Shown: in pieces, positions 4,347 to 62,681 of the stretch | Position numbering within the stretch: the stretch's first letter is position 1 | Layout of the letters: each line of letters opens with the position of its first letter | Source of the DNA: Octopus sinensis | Lineage: Eukaryota | DNA: 64,000 nt | NCBI RefSeq assembly: GCF_006345805.1 | Contig: NC_043002.1 | Coordinates: 97,340,001 to 97,404,000 of the forward strand | Direction: 5' to 3' | Notes under the pieces: model-generated | The model's input: the letters and a program-made list of their open reading frames with translations, nothing else | Databases searched by the model: none | What the model was told of the DNA's origin: nothing | Program-made: the position numbers and the translations under genes

Positions 4347-4383
<37 letters not shown>

Positions 4384-4510
4384 ATATTGTATAAGGGCAT
4401 ATTACACATAAATGCCTCACACTAGGAGGGACAAAGTCATTACTACCAAAAATTATACTAATCATACCCAAATGCAGTTTTTCAAAGCAAGACATTTAAA
4501 AATGAATTAT

Positions 4511-4566
4511 GTTCTGTATCACCGTGATTTCACATACAACTTGCGTCTAATGATCGTCAGCAGAAC
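4511..4566 (-). ncRNA. Type I hammerhead ribozyme, first of 7 minus-strand copies (others start at 4986, 5462, 5938, 6413, 6886, 7362)
   Basis: Minus strand: GTTCTG-CTGACGA-TCATTAGAC-GCAA-GTTGTATGT-GAAA-TCAC-G-GTGA-TA-CAGAAC. 6-bp stem I, canonical CUGANGA/GAAA core, GNRA-capped stem II, 4-bp stem III with a 1-nt loop, AUA cleavage triplet. Confidence 0.88.
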
Positions 4567-7500
4567 TGATTCTGAATACATCATAAATAAACCAACCTTA
4601 TGTAGCGAAGACGAACAGACAACTGTTCACTCCGGCCAAGCACATGGAATGTTTATAAATCATATATCCGGTAAATGGCGGGCTTTTTACGAACTGCATG
4701 TCGGGTAATGAAAAGTATTTCGGAATAAGTTTAACAATTAAGGATAATCTCTTAATAAGGGATCTTAACAAGAAATTATCGGGTAGCTAGCGTGAAAACC
4801 TCATAAAAGAAAAGAATCCGAAAATAATTTTTTTTTTTGAACAAATTAATTATATCTATATTGTATAAAGGGCATTATTACACATAAATGCCTCACACTA
4901 GGAGGGACAAGTCATTACTACCAAAAATTATACTAATCATACCCAAATGCAGTTTTTCAAAGCAAGACATTTAAAAATGAATTATGTTCTGTATCACCGT
5001 GATTTCACATACAACTTGCGTCTAATGATCGTCAGCAGAACTGATTCTGAATACATCATAAATAAACCAACCTTATGTAGCGAAGACGAACAGACAACTG
5101 TTCACTCCGGCCAAGCACATGGAATGTTTATAAATCATATATCCGGTAAATGCGGGCTTTTTACGAACTGCATGTCGGGTAATGAAAAGTATTTCGGAAT
5201 AAGTTTAACAATTAAGGATACTCTCTTAATAAGGGATCTTAACAAGAAATTATCGGGTAGCTAGCGTGAAAACCTCATAAAAGAAAAGAATCCGAAAATA
5301 ATTTTTTTCTTTTGAACAAATTAATTATATCTATATTGTATAAAGGGCATTATTACACATAAATGCCTCACACTAGGAGGGACAAAGTCATTACTACCAA
5401 AAATTATACTAATCATACCCAAATGCAGTTTTTCAAAGCAAGACATTTAAAAATGAATTATGTTCTGTATCACCGTGATTTCACATACAACTTGCGTCTA
5501 ATGATCGTCAGCAGAAATGATTCTGAATACATCATAAATAAACCAACCTTATGTAGCGAAGACGAACAGACACTGTTCACTCCGGCCAAGCACATGGAAT
5601 GTTTATAAATCATATATCCGGTAAATGGCGGGCTTTTTACGAACTGCATGTCGGGTAATGAAAAGTATTTCGGAATAAGTTTAACAATTAAGGATAATCT
5701 CTTAATAAGGGATCTTAACAAGAAATTATCGGGTAGCTAGCGTGAAAACCTCATAAAAGAAAAGAATCCGAAAATAATTTTTTTCTTTTGAACAAATTAA
5801 TTATATCTATATTGTATAAAGGGCATTATTACACATAAATGCCTCACACTAGGAGGGACAAAGTCATTACTACCAAAAATTATACTAATCATACCCAAAT
5901 GCAGTTTTTCAAAGCAAGACATTTAAAAATGAATTATGTTCTGTATCACCGTGATTTCACATACAACTTGCGTCTAATGATCGTCAGCAGAACTGATTCT
6001 GAATACATCATAAATAAACCAACCTTATGTAGCGAAGACGAACAGACAACTGTTCACTCCGGCCAAGCACATGGAATGTTTATAAATCATATATCCGGTA
6101 AATGGTGGGCTTTTTACGAACTGCAATGTCGGGTAATGAAAAGTATTTCGGAATAAGTTTAACAATTAAGGATAATCTCTTAATAAGGGATCTTAACAAG
6201 AAATTATCGGGTAGCTAGCGTGAAAACCTCATAAAAGAAAAGAATCCGAAAATAATTTTTTTTTTTGAACAAATTAATTATATCTATATTGTATAAGGGC
6301 ATTATTACACATAAATGCCTCACACTAGGAGGGACAAGTCATTACTACCAAAAATTATACTAATCATACCCAAATGCAGTTTTTCAAAGCAAGACATTTA
6401 AAAATGAATTATGTTCTGTATCACCGTGATTTCACATACAACTTGCGTCTAATGATCGTCAGCAGAACTGATTCTGAATACATCATAAATAAACCAACCT
6501 TATGTAGCGAAGACGAACAGACAACTGTTCACTCCGGCCAAGCACATGGAATGTTTATAAATCATATATCCGGTAAATGCGGGCTTTTTACGAACTGCAT
6601 GTCGGGTAATGAAAAGTATTTCGGAATAAGTTTAACAATTAGGATAATCTCTTAATAAGGGATCTAAACAAGAAATTATCGGTAGCTAGCGTGAAAACCT
6701 CATAAAAGAAAAGAATCCGAAAATAATTTTTTTTTTTGAACAAATTAATTATATCTATATTGTATAAAGGGCATTATTACACATAAATGCCTCACACTAG
6801 GAGGGACAAAGTCATTACTACCAAAAATTATACTAATCATACCCAAATGCAGTTTTTCAAAGCAAGACATTTAAAAATGAATTATGTTCTGTATCACCGT
6901 GATTTCACATACAACTTGCGTCTAATGATCGTCAGCAGAACTGATTCTGAATACATCATAAATAAACCAACCTTATGTAGCGAAGACGAACAGACAACTG
7001 TTCACTCCGGCCAAGCACATGGATGTTTATAAATCATATATCCGGTAAATGGCGGGCTTTTTACGAACTGCATGTCGGGTAATGAAAAGTATTTCGGAAT
7101 AAGTTTAACAATTAAGGATAATCTCTTAATAAGGGATCTTAACAAGAAATTATCGGGTAGCTAGCGTGAAAACCTCATAAAAGAAAAGAATCCGAAAATA
7201 ATTTTTTTCTTTTGAACAAATTAATTATATCTATATTGTATAAAGGGCATTATTACACATAAATGCCTCACACTAGGAGGGACAAAGTCATTACTACCAA
7301 AAATTATACTAATCATACCCAAATGCAGTTTTTCAAAGCAAGACATTTAAAAATGAATTATGTTCTGTATCACCGTGATTTCACATACAACTTGCGTCTA
7401 ATGATCGTCAGCAGAACTGATTCTGAATACATCATAAATAAACCAACCTTATGTAGCGAAGACGAACAGACAACTGTTCACTCCGGCCAAGCACATGGAA

Positions 7501-7596
7501 TGTTTATAAATCATATATCCGGTAAATGGCGGGCTTTTTACGAACTGCATGTCTTCGCTACATAAGGTTGGTTTATTTATGATGTATTCAGAATCA

Positions 7597-7652
7597 GTTC
7601 TGCTGACGATCATTAGACGCAAGTTGTATGTGAAATCACGGTGATACAGAAC
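7597..7652 (+). ncRNA. Type I hammerhead ribozyme, first of 4 plus-strand copies (others start at 8069, 8553, 9027)
   Basis: Same 56-nt motif in the inverted arm; predicted cleavage between 7646 and 7647. Confidence 0.88.
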
Positions 7653-9618
7653 ATAATTCATTTTTAAATGTCTTGCTTTGAAAAACTGCATTTGGGTATG
7701 ATTAGTATAATTTTTGGTAGTAATGACTTTGTCCTCCTAGTGTGAGGCATTTATGTGTAATAATGCCCTTTATACAATATAGATATAATAATTGTTCAAA
7801 AGAAAAAAATTATTTTCGGATTCTTTTCTTTTATGAGGTTTTCACGCTAGCTACCCGATAATTTCTTGTTAAGATCCCTTATTAGAGATTATCCTTAATT
7901 GTTAAACTATTCCGAAATACTTTTCATTACCCGACATGCAGTTCGTAAAAAGCCCGCCATTTACCGGATATATGATTTATAAACATTCCATGTGCTTGGC
8001 CGGAGTGAACAGTTGTCTGTTCGTCTTCGCTACATAAGGTTGGTTTATTTATGATGTATTCAGAATCAGTTCTGCTGACGATCATTAGACGCAAGTTGTA
8101 TGTGAAATCACGGTGATACAGAACATAATCATTTTTAAATGTCTTGCTTTGAAAAACTGCATTTGGGTATGATTAGTATAATTTTGGTAGTAATGACTTT
8201 GTCCCTCCTAGTGTGAGGCATTTATGTGTAATAATGCCCTTTATACAATATAGATATAATAATTGTTCAAAAGAAAAAAATTATTTTCGGATTCTTTTCT
8301 TTTATGAGGTTTTCACGCTAGCTACCCGATAATTTCTTGTTAAGATCCCTTATTAAGAGATTATCCTTAATTGTTAAACTTATTCCGAAATACTTTTCAT
8401 TACCCGACATGCAGTTCGTAAAAAGCCCGCCATTTACCGGATATATGATTTATATTATTGACATAAACATTGCTTGTGCTTGGCCGGAGTGAACAGTTGT
8501 CTGTTCGTCTTCGCTACATAAGGTTGGTTTATTTATGATGTATTCAGAATCAGTTCTGCTGACGATCATTAGACGCAAGTTGTATGTGAAATCACGGTGA
8601 TACAGAACATAATTCATTTTTAAATGTCTTGCTTTGAAAAACTGCATTTGGGTAGGATTAGTATAATTTTGGTAGTAATGACTTTGTCCCTCCTAGTGTG
8701 AGGCATTTATGTGTAATAATGCCCTTTATACAATATAGATATAATTAATTTGTTCAAAAGAAAAAAATTATTTTCGGATTCTTTTCTTTTATGAGGTTTT
8801 CACGCTAGCTACCGATAATTTCTTGTTAAGATCCCTTATTAAGAGATTATCCTTAATTGTTAAACTTATTCCGAAATACTTTTCATTACCCGACATGCAG
8901 TTCGTAAAAAGCCCGCCATTTACCGGATATATGATTTATAAACATTCCATGTGCTTGGCCGGAGTGAACAGTTGTCTGTTCGTCTTCGCTACATAAGGTT
9001 GGTTTATTTATGATGTATCAGAATCAGTTCTGCTGACGATCATTAGACGCAAGTTGTATGTGAAATCACGGTGATACAGAACATAATCATTTTTAAATGT
9101 CTTGCTTTGAAAAACTGCATTTGGGTATGATTAGTATAATTTTGGTAGTAATGACTTTGTCCCTCCTAGTGTGAGGCATTTATGTGTAATAATGCCCTTT
9201 ATACAATATAGATATAATTAATTTGTTCAAAAGAAAAAAATTATTTTCGGATTCTTTTCTTTTATGAGGTTTTCACGCTAGCTACCCGATAATTTCTTGT
9301 TAAGATCCCTTATTAAGAGATTATCCTTAATTGTTAAACTTATATATATATATATATACATACATACATACAAACATACATATACAGCCACATTTTTTTC
9401 TTGTGATTCTTGTACGTTTTTCTTGGATTAATTATTTACATATACATATATATATACATACATATATATATATATATATTATTGAAGAACCACCATGATG
9501 TAGCAATTCAACAATTATATACTTAAATCATGCCATATAGAAAAAAATTAAAGATACGATAAAACATTTACCTAGAACTAAATAAAGTACAAAATAATAA
9601 ATAAATATTATATAATTA

Positions 9619-9885: not shown

Positions 9886-10230
9886 GTGGCTGCATGGTAA
9901 GTAGTTTCCTTACCAACCACATGGTTCTGGGTTCAGTCCCACTGCGTGGTAACTTGGGCAAGTGTCTTCTACTATAGCCTCGGGCCGACCAAAGCCTTGT
10001 AAGTGGATTTGTTCGACGGAAACTGAAAGAAGCCCGTCGTATATATATATGTATATGTTTCTGTCTGTCCCTCCACCATCGCTTGACAACTGATGCCGGT
10101 GTGTCTACGCCCCCGTAACTTAGCGGTTCGGCAAAAAGACACAGATAGAATAAGTACTAGGCTTACAAACAATAAGTCCTGGGGTCGATTTGTTCCAGCA
10201 TGGCCGCAGTCAAATTGCTGAAACAATAAA
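9886..10230 (+). mobile_element. tRNA-derived SINE, family A (Octopus-type)
   Basis: A-box-like TGGCTGCATGGTAAG and B-box-like GGTTCAGTCCC, body ...GGAAACTGAAAGAAGCCCGTCG..., tail CAGCATGGCCGCAGTC...GAAAC; recurs many times in the window. Confidence 0.85.
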
Positions 10231-32169: not shown

Positions 32170-33650
32170 TAGTTATATTTCGGAATGGTCATATTGCCAG
32201 TTTAGCCAATAAAAACACACGCACTATATATTTGGTGTTATTTTGCTTCAGTGTTATTTGTTTTTTACATTAATCTTAATCTTATTTCGGCCAGAGTTCT
32301 TTCGTCACACTCCTGTGACCGCATCAGTGGTCCTTTGTTTTCTTCTTCTTATTTGTGTCTCTCCTTACTAACCGTCAGCCATTTTGTATTTCTATTGTAT
32401 GTATTCAGTTGCGCATGCTTATATCTCTATGTGCGTCTATGTTTATTTAGTGTGTGTATGTGGAGGGATGCCTGTAATATTTGTATCTTCTGTTTATATA
32501 CGTTCATGTAATTTGTATTTTGTTTTTGTTGTTGTTGTTTTTGTTTATTCTTATTTTGTTCATGTGTTTACATCCACTTATTATTATCATTACATATGCT
32601 TGTATGTATGTATGTATAACAACAATACTAGTAATAATAATAATAAATCAAATCGAAAAAAAAATATATATATATACACATACATATATAAACATACACA
32701 CATACACACACACACACATATATATATATATAGTTATTTATTTCTATTTGTTTATTTATCTGTGTATTTATTATGTTTTCGGGATCCTCTATCGTCATAT
32801 GTTGTGGTGTGTGTTAGTGCTCCATTCTAGTTTTCTATTCAGGCTAGGTTTATTTTCTATTATGTGTGTAGCTTCTGTAATTTGTCTAATTGTTGCATCT
32901 GTTCTATGTGTGGGCAATATTTTAATTTCTCTGTTATTGATTGATCCCCCGTGTTCCTGTTCGGCGTGTTGGTACTGAATCGATGAGCTTTTACCTTCCT
33001 TGAGTTGTCTGCAATGTACATTTACCCGCTCTCCTATGCTTCTTGCCGTTTCCCCTACGTATGTCGTTGTCTTGTTACTGCATCGTCCCGCTATACATCT
33101 TATACTATAGACTACATTTCTGGCTTTACAGTTTGTTTGTGGGCTAAATCTACATACAGTACAGTACTTATCCGTACAGGGGGTTCTACTAAAAGGATAG
33201 GTTCTACCAATTATAGATTTGATAGGGTTGCCTGGCTTTTCAACAACCTAAATTCTTAGCTTAAGTTTGTCTAGGGTCCTTCTAAAGTTCACCTCCAGGG
33301 GTGGTGTCAACAAACATGACACTCTGGTATTTATGGCTATCATACCAAGAGTTGGCCTTCCCTATTTTCTTTTTTTTCCTTTCTATAGTGTTCCATGACT
33401 TGTTCCTATAGAGTGGGCAAATCCCATTCCTATCATTACATAATATATTATCAAATTTCTTCATGGCTCCTTCGTATACTCTGATCCTTTCTTGATGGCT
33501 GTAACCTGAGAACTGCATGCAGTGAATGAAATATTGTATGTGTCTCTTTAGCTCTGTGGGCTCGCACATGCGTGACACATTTCTCATTATTCTGACGAGG
33601 CCTGCCATCAAAATATTGAATTTGGCATTGTCCGCAATGGCTGAGTTTCA
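32170..33650 (-). mobile_element. Penelope-like element, 5'-truncated (RT thumb, Cys linker, GIY-YIG, 3' pLTR)
   Basis: NSAIADNAKFNILMAGLVRIMRNVS...FSGY...SVMFVDTTPGGEL, then a frameshift, then VVEKPG...CTDKYCTVC...CKARNVVYSIRC...YVGETARSIGER...H...H...RQITEATHI...PSLNRKLEW...* (stop 32795-32797). The 3' end carries an HHR and ends in (TA)n. Confidence 0.9.
32289..32333 (-). ncRNA. PLE pLTR hammerhead-like motif (A9C mutated)
   Basis: GGACCA-CTGATGC-G-GTCACA-GGAG-TGTGAC-GAAA-GAAC-TC-TGGCC, downstream of the GIY-YIG ORF. Confidence 0.65.
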
Positions 33651-37574: not shown

Positions 37575-37993
37575 TATTTATTTCTTTATTGCCCACGCGG
37601 AGCTAAACATAGAGGGGACAAACAAGGGGACAAAGGGATTAAGTCGTTTACATCGACCCCAGTGCGTAACTGGTGCTTCATTTATCGACCCCGACAGGAT
37701 GAAAGGAAAAATCGACCTCGGCTAAATTTGGACTCAGAACGTAGTGGTAGACGAAATACCTATTTCTTTACTACCCACAAGGGGCTAAACACAGAGAGGA
37801 CAAACAAGGACAGACAAACGGATTAAGTCGATTATATCGACCCAAGTGCGTAGCTGGTACTTATTTAATCGACCCCGAAAGGATGAAAGGCAAAGTCGAC
37901 CTCGGCGGAATTTTAACTCAGAACGTAACGGCAGACGAAATACCACTAAGCATTTCACCTGGCGTGCTAACGATTCTGCCAGCTCGCCGCCCT
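37575..37993 (-). mobile_element. SINE family B, tandem dimer
   Basis: Head GGCGGCGAGCTGGCAGAATCGTTAGCACGCC..., core GACTTTGCCTTTCATCCTTTCGGGGTCGAT (resembles the MetaSINE-type domain), tail CCCTTGTGGGTAGTAAAGAAAT. Confidence 0.88.
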
Positions 37994-56602: not shown

Positions 56603-57830
56603 AGGCGGCGAGCTGGCAGAAACGTTAGCACGCCGGGCGAAATGCGTAGCCGTATTTCGTCTGCCGTTACGTTCTGAGTTCAAATCCCGCCGAGGATGAC
56701 TTTGCCTTTCATCCTTTCGGGGTCGGTAAAATAAGTATCAGTTATGCACTGGAGTCGGTAAAATAAGTATCAGTTATGCACTGGGGTCGATATAATCGAC
56801 TTAATCCGTTTGTCTGTACTTGTTTGTCCCCTCTGTGTTTAGCCCCTTGTGGGTAGTATAGAAATAGGTATTTCGTCTGTCTTTATGTTCTGAGTTCTAA
56901 TTCCGCCGAGGTCGACTTTGCCTTTCATCCTTTCGGGGTCGATAAATGAAGGACCAGTTACAAACTGAGGTCGATGTAATCGACTTAATCAGTTTGTCTG
57001 TCCTTGTTTGTCCCCTCTATGTTTAGCCCCTTGTGGGCAGTAAAGAAATAAGAAAACGTTAGCACGCCGGGCGTGCTTAGCGGTATTTCGTCTGCTGCTA
57101 CGTTCTGAGTTCAAATTCCACCGAGGTTGACTTTGCCTTTCATCGTTTCGGGGCCGATAAATTAAGTGCCAGTTGCGTACTGGGGTCGATCGAATCGACT
57201 GGATCCCTCCCTCCAAAATTCGGGCCTTATGCCTAGAATAGAAAAGGGAATCGTAAACACCACGGCATTTCGTCTACCGCTACGTTATGAGTTCAAATTC
57301 TGCCGAGATCGACTTTGCCTTTCATCCTTCGGGGTCGATAAATGAAGGACCAGTTACAAACTGAGGTCGATGTAATCGACTTAATCAGTTTGTCTGTCCT
57401 TGTTTGTCCCCTCTATGTTTAGCCCCTTGTGGGCAGTAAAGAAATAAGAAAACGTTAACACGCCGGGCGTGCTTAGCGGTATTTCGTCTGCTGCTACGTT
57501 CTGAGTTCAAATTCCACCGAGGTTGACTTTGCCTTTCATCGTTTCGGGGCCGATAAATTAAGTGCCAGTTGCGTACTGGGGTCGATCGAATCGACTGGAT
57601 CCCTCCCTCCGAAATTCGGGCCTTATGCCTAGAATAGAAAAGGGAATCGTAAACACCACGGCATTTCGTCTACCGCTACGTTATGAGTTCAAATTCTGCC
57701 GAGATCGACTTTGCCTTTCATCCTTTCGGGGTCGATTAAATAAGTACCAGTGAAAAACTGGGATCGACGTAATCGCCTAGTCCCCTCCCCAAAGAATATC
57801 AGGCTTTGTGCCTTTAGTAGAAAAGATTAT
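56603..57830 (+). mobile_element. SINE family B head-to-tail cluster including a 396-bp near-exact tandem duplication
   Basis: GATAAATGAAGGACCAGTTACAAACTGAGG at 56941 and 57337; about six core repeats in total. Confidence 0.9.
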
Positions 57831-60827: not shown

Positions 60828-61372
60828 GATGGTTCCCCCCTCGTTATCGAGTATGGCCATTGCACGAAGCTTAACTGTTATAGGTGCTGTGATCGAATGT
60901 GATTTTTTAGCCCAGCTAAAGATCTACAATGTCTTGTACAGAATTGGCAACTAAAACGTTTACAGGTAATAGCCGGCTGTAGTTGTAACTGGGCTTCATG
61001 TACCTTTGCATGTCGTTTAAGTCCTCCTGCTGAATTACTCTCTCTTCCACATGCCTGAGAGACATGATTAGTATGGTGTGTAACACCACCACCAGTGGCC
61101 AGGTTGTCACTCATCCGTCTCGCTTTATGACTACGAAGACGGCTCTTGAGTCCAGCTTTACTGAGGCAGGGTCTTGCATAGATACTGCATGTCAGCATCA
61201 TAGGAAGACCCTTCTCATCTGGAAGTGTAACAGTGATGCCCTTCTTGACATCTCTCCTTACTTTCTCATGCGCAACTCGAGATTTCTCAAAAGTAGGTGT
61301 CCCCTCGTGCACAATCCTTCTCCACCTGCTGCAATCAATAGCTATGCCCTTCTATGTGTCAGGAGAGATGCA
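60828..61372 (-). mobile_element. RTE-clade LINE 3' end with three C2H2-like zinc fingers
   Basis: ORF 60878-61312: ...CSIYARPCLSKAGLKSRLRSH...SQACGRESNSAGGLKRHAKVH...CQFCTRHCRSLAGLKNHIRSQH*; upstream A.D.SRWR..V..G; 3' hairpin CTCG-ATAA-CGAG and (ATGT)n tail. Confidence 0.75.
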
Positions 61373-61434: not shown

Positions 61435-62681
61435 CAGTATCTCACGGAAGTATGTACACCCCTAAAAATGTTCAGTAATATTGCCATTACTCTGATAATA
61501 TCGAAGGAAAGGAAACGAAATTTATACTGAATAAAATATATCATACATGCAAACATTATACAAATTTGGAACACAAAACAATAAAAATTTTCATAGATAT
61601 GAACGAAATATTAATTTTCAAACGTTACAAAAATGTATACACCCTAAAGAAAATTTGCTATATTCAATATTTTATCCAATTTTTTTTTTTATAAATTCAG
61701 TTATTGCTGATAATTTCAATTTAATAAATTATTTCTCCTGACATTTTTGCACCGGCCATTGTTATTGCATCTGCCTTGGTGAAAATCTTTTTCATTGTGA
61801 ATAAAATGGCATCAAAAGAAAAAGAATTGTTTGAACCAGTGTGGTCTTCATGTGCGCATTCCTCGTAGGAAGCCTCTCCTTACTTCCAGGTATAAATTAA
61901 GTTGTCTTTCGTTTGCCGAAACCTATGTGAGTAAGGCGAAGGGGTTTTGGAATAAAATTGTTTTTTCTGACGAGACTAAAAATCAACTTGTTTGGGTCAG
62001 ATGGTATTAAACGTGTATGGGACGACCAGGTGAAGATAATAGCGACAAGTGCACCGTGCCTACCGTGAAACATGGCGGCGGAAGTGTGGAAGGACATACA
62101 TTTATTGAGAGAACAATGGATTCAAGGCTTTATTGTGACATGTTGCAGAAAACAATGTTGAAAAGCATCAAGGAACTAGGAAGATATTTCATGTTCCAAC
62201 ATGATAATGACCCTAAACACACTTCAAGGATGACGACTAAGTTTTTATCAAATAAAAAGGTAAAGATATTACCTTGGCCTACCATCTTACCTGATTTAAA
62301 CCCAATAGAACATTTGTTGGGTGTTTTGAAAAGGGAGATTGAGGAGAAAAAACACTGCAGTGTAACACAGTTAATAGAATTCATTCAGGATGAATTGAGG
62401 TCAAATATATCGGTTATATGCGGAACTTTAGCCCAGAAGACTTAATACAGTCATAGAAAGCAAGGGTGGTCACACCAAATATTGAATATAGCAAATTTCG
62501 TTTAGGGTGTACATATTTTTCTATCGTTTGAAAATTAACATTTTGTTCATATCTTTGAAAATGTTTAGTGCTTTTTGATCTTTTATTCAGTATAAATTTC
62601 ATTTGATTTCCTTCGATATTATCGGAGTAATGGCAATTTTACTGAGATTTTTAGGGGTGTATACAATTCTTTGAGATATTA
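61435..62681 (+). mobile_element. Tc1 (DD34E) DNA transposon, internally deleted, with IR/DR-type long TIRs
   Basis: TIRs ~61435-61670 and ~62477-62681, each with two TACACCC.TAAA-like direct repeats; transposase remnants LFSDETKINLFGSDG, TVKHGGGSV, FQHDNDPKHTS, WP...PDLNPIEH (34 residues between D and E); TA context. Confidence 0.93.

Follow-up and report, generated by a model that had tools for sequence, protein, structure and literature searches.

A two-armed hammerhead array in Octopus sinensis belongs to a family with insertion marks of Penelope-like elements

Results and Discussion

Organization of the locus

The window analyzed here is a stretch of 64,000 nucleotides of the Octopus sinensis genome (contig NC_043002.1, positions 97,340,001 to 97,404,000). 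It contains a two-armed repeat of about 5 kb, whose arms point outward and run with both outer ends into (TA)n (Table 1). TRF places the left arm at 4377–7553 (period 476, 6.7 copies) and the right arm at 7551–9343 (period 473, 3.8 copies). On the right side the (TA)n tract is followed by (ATAC)n up to position 9382. Because both flanks are (TA)n, a target-site duplication cannot be delimited. The units of the array differ from each other mostly by single homopolymer indels, which is the pattern expected of assembly errors, and the 11-nt insert found in a single unit is either an assembly error or a polymerase slip.

Table 1. Features of the two-armed array (positions in the window; strand in hammerhead sense for the arms)
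Feature	Position	Strand	Remarks
Left (TA)n target	4350..4381	.	last 5 nt (4377–4381) common with the element end
Left arm	4377..7553	-	3177 bp, 6.7 units, 7 hammerhead motifs; outer terminus site B (unit 142), inner terminus unit 292
Site B end	4377..4393	-	unit 126–142; most (TA)n-like 12-mer of the unit (10/12)
Predicted type I hammerhead motif	7362..7417	-	innermost copy of the left arm
GAC	7461..7463	+	mirrors the junction microhomology
Non-palindromic spacer	7464..7550	.	87 nt inside the left arm, unit 295–380
GTC microhomology, head-to-head joint	7551..7553	.	left-arm unit 292 / right-arm unit 381
Right arm	7551..9343	+	1793 bp, 3.8 units, 4 hammerhead motifs; inner terminus unit 381, outer terminus site A (unit 269)
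Predicted type I hammerhead motif	7597..7652	+	first copy of the right arm; read manually from the sequence
11-nt insert	8452..8462	+	with two neighbouring substitutions; in a single unit only
Site A end	9322..9343	+	unit ~248–269
Right (TA)n target	9341..9358	.	first 3 nt common with the element end

At the joint the forward unit closes with ...TGCAT-GTC and then continues as the reverse complement starting at position 7463, the overlap being exactly 3 nt. The joint described in the first-pass annotation, namely the GTC, the 87-nt spacer and outward arms of ~6.7 and ~3.8 units, was confirmed. The GTC is mirrored by a GAC, and the arms end at unit positions 142 (4377) and 269 (9343). The overlap at this single joint is within chance, as 36 out of 400 random joints have at least 3 nt in common. 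The spacer taken alone is uninformative because in a tandem array an offset is defined only modulo the unit.

The repeat unit and its predicted hammerhead

Unit positions are numbered from the predicted hammerhead cut. Across the family the tandem and non-coding unit has a length of 476–483 nt (~477 nt). The hammerhead motif at the start of the right arm is composed of a 6-bp stem I (7597–7602/7647–7652), the sequence CUGACGA (7603–7609), stem II (7610–7631) with a U-U at its base, GAAA (7632–7635) and a short near-palindromic stem III, and the cut is predicted after position 7646. In 79–86 loci no variation is seen in the core or in stems I and III, apart from N7, where all four bases occur, and one A15.1 change. 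N7 is a position of the hammerhead known to be free. No hammerhead family of Rfam was matched, neither at the gathering threshold over the whole window nor by E-value over positions 7500–8100, and folding of the motif by itself gives no improvement over shuffled sequences (z about 0 to 0.9). Taken as a whole, the unit has a compact fold, with a z of −4.3 for the linear form and of −5 to −7 for the circular fold in six units.

The unit encodes no plausible protein: all that is found is a 120-residue frame between two stops on its antisense strand, which is attributable to chance. An ORF with RT and GIY-YIG domains, as expected of an autonomous Penelope-like element, is absent from the window array. 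Each unit carries a type I hammerhead motif, for which self-cleavage is predicted, and judged by its sequence the array has the marks of metazoan non-LTR retrozymes, i.e., non-coding tandem units within about 150–1000 bp, a hammerhead motif and membership in a dispersed family.

Family survey

A search of the genome (2.7 Gb) for exact matches found 249 to the 269 end followed by TA and 514 to one allele of the hammerhead core; the controls gave 0 matches. We sampled 108 of the at least 249 loci by three selections. The unit search contributed 28 loci (28 scored of 874 candidates), which are biased to long arrays. Another 64 were chosen by the 269 end only, being all 69 C1–C3 matches minus four already sampled, with two neighbours merged, and 16 were chosen by the 136–142 end (24 matches of the window's allele minus eight already sampled). 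Below, the 269 end is referred to as A and the 136–142 end as B. Arm lengths were counted although unreliable in L137 (two elements side by side) and in L082 and L075 (interrupted), and L066, in which B terminates at 126 and an (AG)n run follows, was nonetheless scored as A + B.

Two arms were found at 95 of the 108 loci, every one of them outward. The end pair is A + B at 87 of these loci and A with another end at five, while three are cut by the edge of the retrieved sequence; the pairings A + A and B + B do not occur among the 95. All 13 single-armed loci have the A end. The A-selected set (n = 64; median total length 550 bp) comprises 53 A + B loci, nine single-armed loci, one A + other and one cut, and the B-selected set (n = 16) 15 A + B loci and one cut. 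End A spans 258–270 and lies at 269 in 76 of the 87 A + B loci; end B spans 126–144 and was scored as 136 or 142 as the TA merges. When all 12-mers of the unit are compared for their likeness to (TA)n, B is the highest (10/12) and A is ordinary (6/12). Of the two arms a single one carries the stretch between A and B, a tail of 127–133 nt. Copies of less than one unit are numerous, and the longest arms reach 14.5 units.

With 95 of 108 sampled and 53 of 64 A-selected loci conforming, the two-armed geometry is the normal insertion form of the family. Head-to-head inversions, for which the first-pass annotation had recommended a survey of other loci, are thus common, and unidirectional arrays are not the only form. 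Its expectation of variable outer permutation points failed: variation is confined to the inner joint, and the outer ends are fixed. Marks of elements mobilized by Penelope are found in the (TA)n flanks at the surveyed loci (an AT-rich or (TA)n target), in the inverted 5′-truncated head-to-head copy at 95 of 108 loci and in the one-end tail, i.e., two 3′ ends that pair as described above. We conclude that the feature in the window is real and represents a non-autonomous element of the retrozyme type that bears the insertion marks of Penelope. Penelope elements were already known for inverted copies and one-sided tails, a link that the annotation had left out.

A few loci deserve separate mention. 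In L176 (8650–8760) there is a diverged family member of ~120 bp and about 80% identity with the same A and B ends, and this copy suggests that the two-end rule may be older than the current subfamilies. L115 and L137 each contain two family insertions within one (TA)n tract. The single-armed loci L045 (a C3 locus) and L047 (C2339) have 5′ ends made up of short repeated restarts interleaved with TA, which look as if they came from repeated priming attempts.

Could the joint in the window be an assembly artefact or a fold-back artefact of long reads? Among the contigs listed from four public runs none bridges it, so that it rests on the assembly, and possibly no other animal than the assembled one carries it; its units also contain scattered indel errors. 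However, the locus follows the A + B rule of the family, which a read artefact would not know, its left arm is longer than the right one and its flanks differ. Moreover, contigs of the public runs X2 and X11 contain at least 13 comparable outward joints at other phases (leaving out one in-arm joint and one diverged unit), mostly at depths of 6–46 compared with 10 and 39 for unique flank, i.e., most of them near single-copy depth. We therefore regard an artefact as very improbable. Five organism labels among the public runs X1–X18 hold 64–78% of the junction-region words, and the family is therefore probably common to related species.

Inner joints

The inner joints are scattered over the whole unit. 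At 45 of the 66 flush or overlapping joints at least 2 nt are shared, compared with 88 of 400 joints simulated with the same caller (p 4e-13), and microhomologies of 2–4 nt are favoured. Unlike the single 3-nt overlap in the window, the family-wide excess of microhomology thus exceeds chance. Inserts of 1–81 nt are present at 29 of the 95 joints, several of them copied from nearby, and eight joints are zero-spacer self-complementary words.

Near-palindromic joints, with a phase difference under 20, account for 38 of the 95 joints as compared to 8% expected. Among the A + B loci same-phase joints occur in 32 of the 45 copies in which both arms are at most one unit long and in 4 of the 42 with a longer arm; re-pairing of the arms yields a mean of 6.8 and a maximum of 18 such joints. 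The common stops lie mostly away from the predicted hammerhead cut. In multi-unit copies the spacer offset is broad (0–238), which rules out the 87-nt spacer as a fold-back loop. The array in the window is a member of the long, off-phase class.

Alleles shared between the arms

We compared the arms of the A-selected set at 25 sites that separate the subfamilies. The arms of one insertion agree at 571 of 585 allele calls and differ at 14, compared with an agreement of 0.74 (maximum 0.83) for re-paired arms. Among 33 multi-unit loci we also searched for private alleles, i.e., alleles found at no other sampled locus (108 of at least 249). Such alleles are present in all units of both arms in C12b (16/16) and C6c (7/7); L090 has private alleles at two sites in 8/8 units, and in C2208 a private allele is found in 9/10. 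The array in the window has none. Private alleles fixed in both arms would fit repeated copying of one monomer. They could also stem from a uniform source array outside the sample and not from a circle.

The allele data bear on the possibility that the array is a satellite which expanded locally by unequal crossover and acquired an internal inversion, or that two insertions lie back to back. Li et al. (2026; 10.64898/2026.07.22.740005) discuss retrozyme arrays in terms of local amplification, and several insertions per (TA)n tract do occur, as in L115 and L137. Yet the joint contains no (TA)n, the same two ends are found at 87 of 95 loci and always outward, many copies are shorter than a unit and the arms share their alleles. 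Being already contradicted by the end pairing and the alleles, this explanation has next to no probability left.

Probable priming of both strands on one RNA

The most probable explanation, and one in which we have good though not full confidence, is a single insertion into (TA)n, in which a Penelope-type enzyme used a single RNA, in all likelihood a circular monomer, as the template for priming at both nicked strands, and the products were joined by microhomology. Transcripts of an existing array would cleave themselves into compact monomer RNA, which is probably circular. The GIY-YIG/RT protein of a Penelope-like element, acting in trans, would then cut both strands of the (TA)n target. One strand would start at site A, a start that is obligatory in the observed pattern and is probably set by the protein or by RNA structure, because A is little like TA. 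The other strand would start at site B or rarely at a different TA-like spot, probably assisted by pairing since B is the most TA-like stretch, and the 127–133 nt between A and B would represent the Penelope tail on one arm only. The two RTs would cover separate distances, 3.8 and 6.7 units in the window, and displace the earlier cDNA as they go; if the RNA were broken or came to an end before a round was completed, both RTs would stop together and a near-perfect palindrome would result. The cDNA 3′ ends would be joined via the 2–4-nt complementarities or short inserts seen at the joints, in the window via GTC. The eight loop-less joints are as would be expected from the annealing of two identical cDNA ends, unlike a snap-back.

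Twin priming with microhomology joining, as put forward in the first-pass annotation, is well supported by the 87 fixed-end pairs among 95 loci, by the microhomology excess and by arms whose length or lack of overlap does not fit a simple fold-back. Repeated copying of one monomer gains indirect support from the fixed private alleles. For the putative circle the indirect support comes from these alleles, from the circular fold and from the loss of same-phase joints in long copies. Against our explanation it must be held that the start sites are strand-neutral in the published test with Penelope-like proteins, yet A and B always pair here, and that there is neither an Rfam match nor a sequence link between the unit and 40 GIY-YIG loci. 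The stops that mostly avoid the predicted hammerhead cut, the correlated arm lengths, the 14 discordant allele calls, the non-cleaving Xenopus retrozymes and the reversed roles of the two ends in the autonomous element (see below) likewise count against it.

The two arms could also result from self-priming, in which the A-primed cDNA folds back at its 3′ end and the second arm is captured at B by (TA)n pairing, the off-phase joints arising from later deletions at the palindrome centre. This is close to the Penelope model of Arkhipova et al. (2013; PMC3846280), in which junction palindromes were read as self-priming. It would account for the excess of near-palindromic joints, for the alleles common to both arms and for the (TA)n-like nature of B. 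A fold-back from A requires that B lies inside A and that the start of B lies inside the end of A. We find B inside A at 58 of the 87 A + B loci, but at 29 the containment is broken. In 13 loci, including the one in the window, B is far longer than A (up to 5157 vs 145 bp); C1b and C10a are among the loci that would need a one-sided loss of 4–5 kb, and the window locus would require a loss of at least 1.5 kb from A. At 16 of the 87 loci neither arm contains the other; 11 of these are clearly off-phase and three have disjoint arms (L064, L092, L141). Among the 32 same-phase copies the start of B lies beyond that of A in 15, is level with it in 11 and falls inside it in six, and eight joints have no loop. 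The scarcity of mirrored errors also counts against self-priming, though weakly: only three substitutions outside indels are common to both arms in the 33 multi-unit loci, and the 246 singletons in 152,371 cells are mostly assembly errors and leave few reliable substitutions for this comparison. The lengths of the two arms are correlated (0.71 overall; Spearman 0.54 for off-phase copies), so the arms are not independent, a correlation that is compatible with two primings as well as with a fold-back. We regard self-priming as unlikely; it keeps some weight because a later deletion at the palindrome centre could blur both the containment and the phase test.

Twin priming might also have had as its template a linear multimer that was transcribed from a source array and stayed uncleaved, without an RNA circle. 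Insertion by Penelope-like proteins in vitro is independent of hammerhead cleavage (PMC11167929), the circle is putative, and uniform source arrays would yield uniform copies. This is difficult to bring in line with private alleles that are fixed over up to 16 units in single loci, with arms of up to 14.5 units and with the strong circular fold, and the loss of same-phase stops in arms longer than one unit would not be expected of a linear RNA that has a 5′ end. A linear multimer as the template is therefore in our opinion clearly improbable.

Autonomous Penelope-like elements in the genome

Out of 5029 candidates 150 were scored, and 147 of these are GIY-YIG matches, including frames of 775–883 residues; the two frames checked both have RT and GIY-YIG domains. 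One autonomous family has a short end in (TA)n that resembles B and, less often, a long end 30–35 nt further. Among 17 copies selected by the short end four have an inverted long-end arm, one has another inversion and 12 are single, and the long-end matches have an inverted short-end arm in 4/4 cases. Short and long end are paired in all eight two-armed copies that have both full ends, and the pairing rule is therefore common to the autonomous element, with the roles reversed: in this element the short end predominates, and single-armed copies are in the majority (12 of 17), the reverse of the hammerhead family. A BLAST search with the unit against 40 GIY-YIG loci returned only the small separate family copy in L176. 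Given that no sequence link was found in these 40 loci, we treat the autonomous family as a comparison and not as the identified helper. A descriptor search found no hammerhead pattern beside the family with the 781-aa ORF, and a genome search with a pattern derived from a loose end in run X4 returned nothing.

The autonomous copies L195 and L196 (C1, 50.57 Mb and 50.97 Mb), 400 kb apart, have an identical inner inversion joint (reference 2218/3338) and represent either a re-mobilized or a duplicated two-armed copy. The window itself contains a broken Penelope-like remnant on the minus strand (32795–33647) that consists of an upstream fragment and a frame whose weak match to GIY-YIG falls just short of the Pfam cut-off (E 3.5e-4).

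Relation to known systems

According to the available text of the sources, Penelope-like elements have (TA)n targets, form inverted 5′-truncated copies and carry a tail of 30–40 bp at one of their ends (PMC8557442; PMC3846280). The octopus family resembles the EN+ elements in its partial tandems, the inverted 5′-truncated copy at the 5′ end, the palindromic head-to-head joints, the one-end tail and the (TA)n targets. It differs from them in that it has no ORF, that its tail measures 127–133 nt instead of 30–40, that the two-armed form is the rule (53/64) and that both arms can be multi-unit. Arkhipova et al. (2013; PMC3846280, available text) put forward self-priming as the mechanism of Penelope elements; the octopus data favour two primings. 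Purified Penelope-like protein (PAc, Poseidon, Anolis) cleaves and extends both target strands and uses two internal starts on the RNA, and the authors of this 2024 study speak of "additional steps yet to be validated" (PMC11167929). An AT-rich target, the use of both strands and two internal starts spaced by the tail length are common to target-primed reverse transcription by PAc and to the octopus insertions. In vitro, however, PAc starts without strand preference and no joined product is described, whereas the octopus insertions use one site per strand. Circular templates for copying of more than a unit have already been proposed (PMC4209133, available text).

Retrozymes are described as non-autonomous derivatives of Penelope-like elements whose arrays are discussed as local amplification, and eight of the nine Xenopus retrozymes tested by Li et al. 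failed to cleave (10.64898/2026.07.22.740005, available text). With the metazoan non-LTR retrozymes in the available text of PMC7229834 and Li et al. the octopus family shares the tandem arrangement of non-coding units a few hundred bp long, a low GC content, one type I hammerhead per unit, the U-U at the base of helix II, dispersed copies and the proposed dependence on Penelope-like elements; the U-U has been described for the axolotl retrozyme hammerhead HHR_Amex2 (PMC7229834). Published retrozymes are tandem (the word "inverted" is absent from the main text of PMC7229834), whereas 95 of the 108 octopus loci are head-to-head with two fixed ends. For published retrozymes circles and cleavage have been demonstrated, and the octopus family is known from its sequence. 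The units of Li et al. are tied by sequence to pLTRs, a link that the octopus unit lacks in the 40 GIY-YIG loci. In the available text of the octopus genome repeat annotation (PMC13282606) the word "ribozyme" is absent. Our literature search, subscription papers and supplements aside, returned no report of twin priming for Penelope elements or retrozymes and no statement of the pairing rule of long and short ends, of length-dependent palindromes or of fixed private alleles.

In LINE-1 elements the second priming takes place at variable internal sites, each of the two cDNAs represents a different part of the RNA and the 3′ end is poly(A). The octopus family, in contrast, has a fixed second end, arms that overlap in most loci and can run over several units, and no poly(A), which sets it apart from inversions of the LINE-1 twin-priming type. 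A second priming at the target, cDNAs joined by microhomology and outward arms are common to both systems (for LINE-1, Ostertag and Kazazian 2001 as described in PMC10760644), and the available text of a review calls LINE-1 twin priming unvalidated (PMC10760644).

The family bears on the question of how Penelope-like elements make inverted one-tailed insertions (PMC3846280, available text; PMC11167929) and on the origin of animal retrozyme arrays, i.e., local crossover versus copying of a circle. It converts both questions into counts and a simple assay with a 477-nt RNA, a (TA)n target and two predicted starts. It also accounts for one source of kilobase palindromes in an animal genome. Penelope transposition in general may be a dedicated two-enzyme reaction with one RNA, two strand-assigned starts, RTs that circle by displacement and closure by end joining of the cDNAs; we consider this a serious possibility but stop short of calling it probable. 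If it were true, no separate priming of the second strand would be needed, tail, inverted copy and tandem arrays would be products of a single reaction, and the octopus family would be its read-out in a genome. An RT that primes on both strands and displaces its own cDNA over many rounds would interest those who build tools for RNA-templated insertion.

Apart from the array the window contains further repeats. Between 12233 and 14004 there are about 20 tandem copies of an 89–91-bp piece of a common dispersed repeat, a motif that is single near 10020. Short tandems at 56887–57775 (period 396) and 37579–37944 (period 184) look like common interspersed repeats. A DDE_3 transposase fragment on the plus strand (62011–62445, E 4.5e-9) and a C2H2 zinc-finger fragment on the minus strand (60878–61351) are probably transposon remnants.
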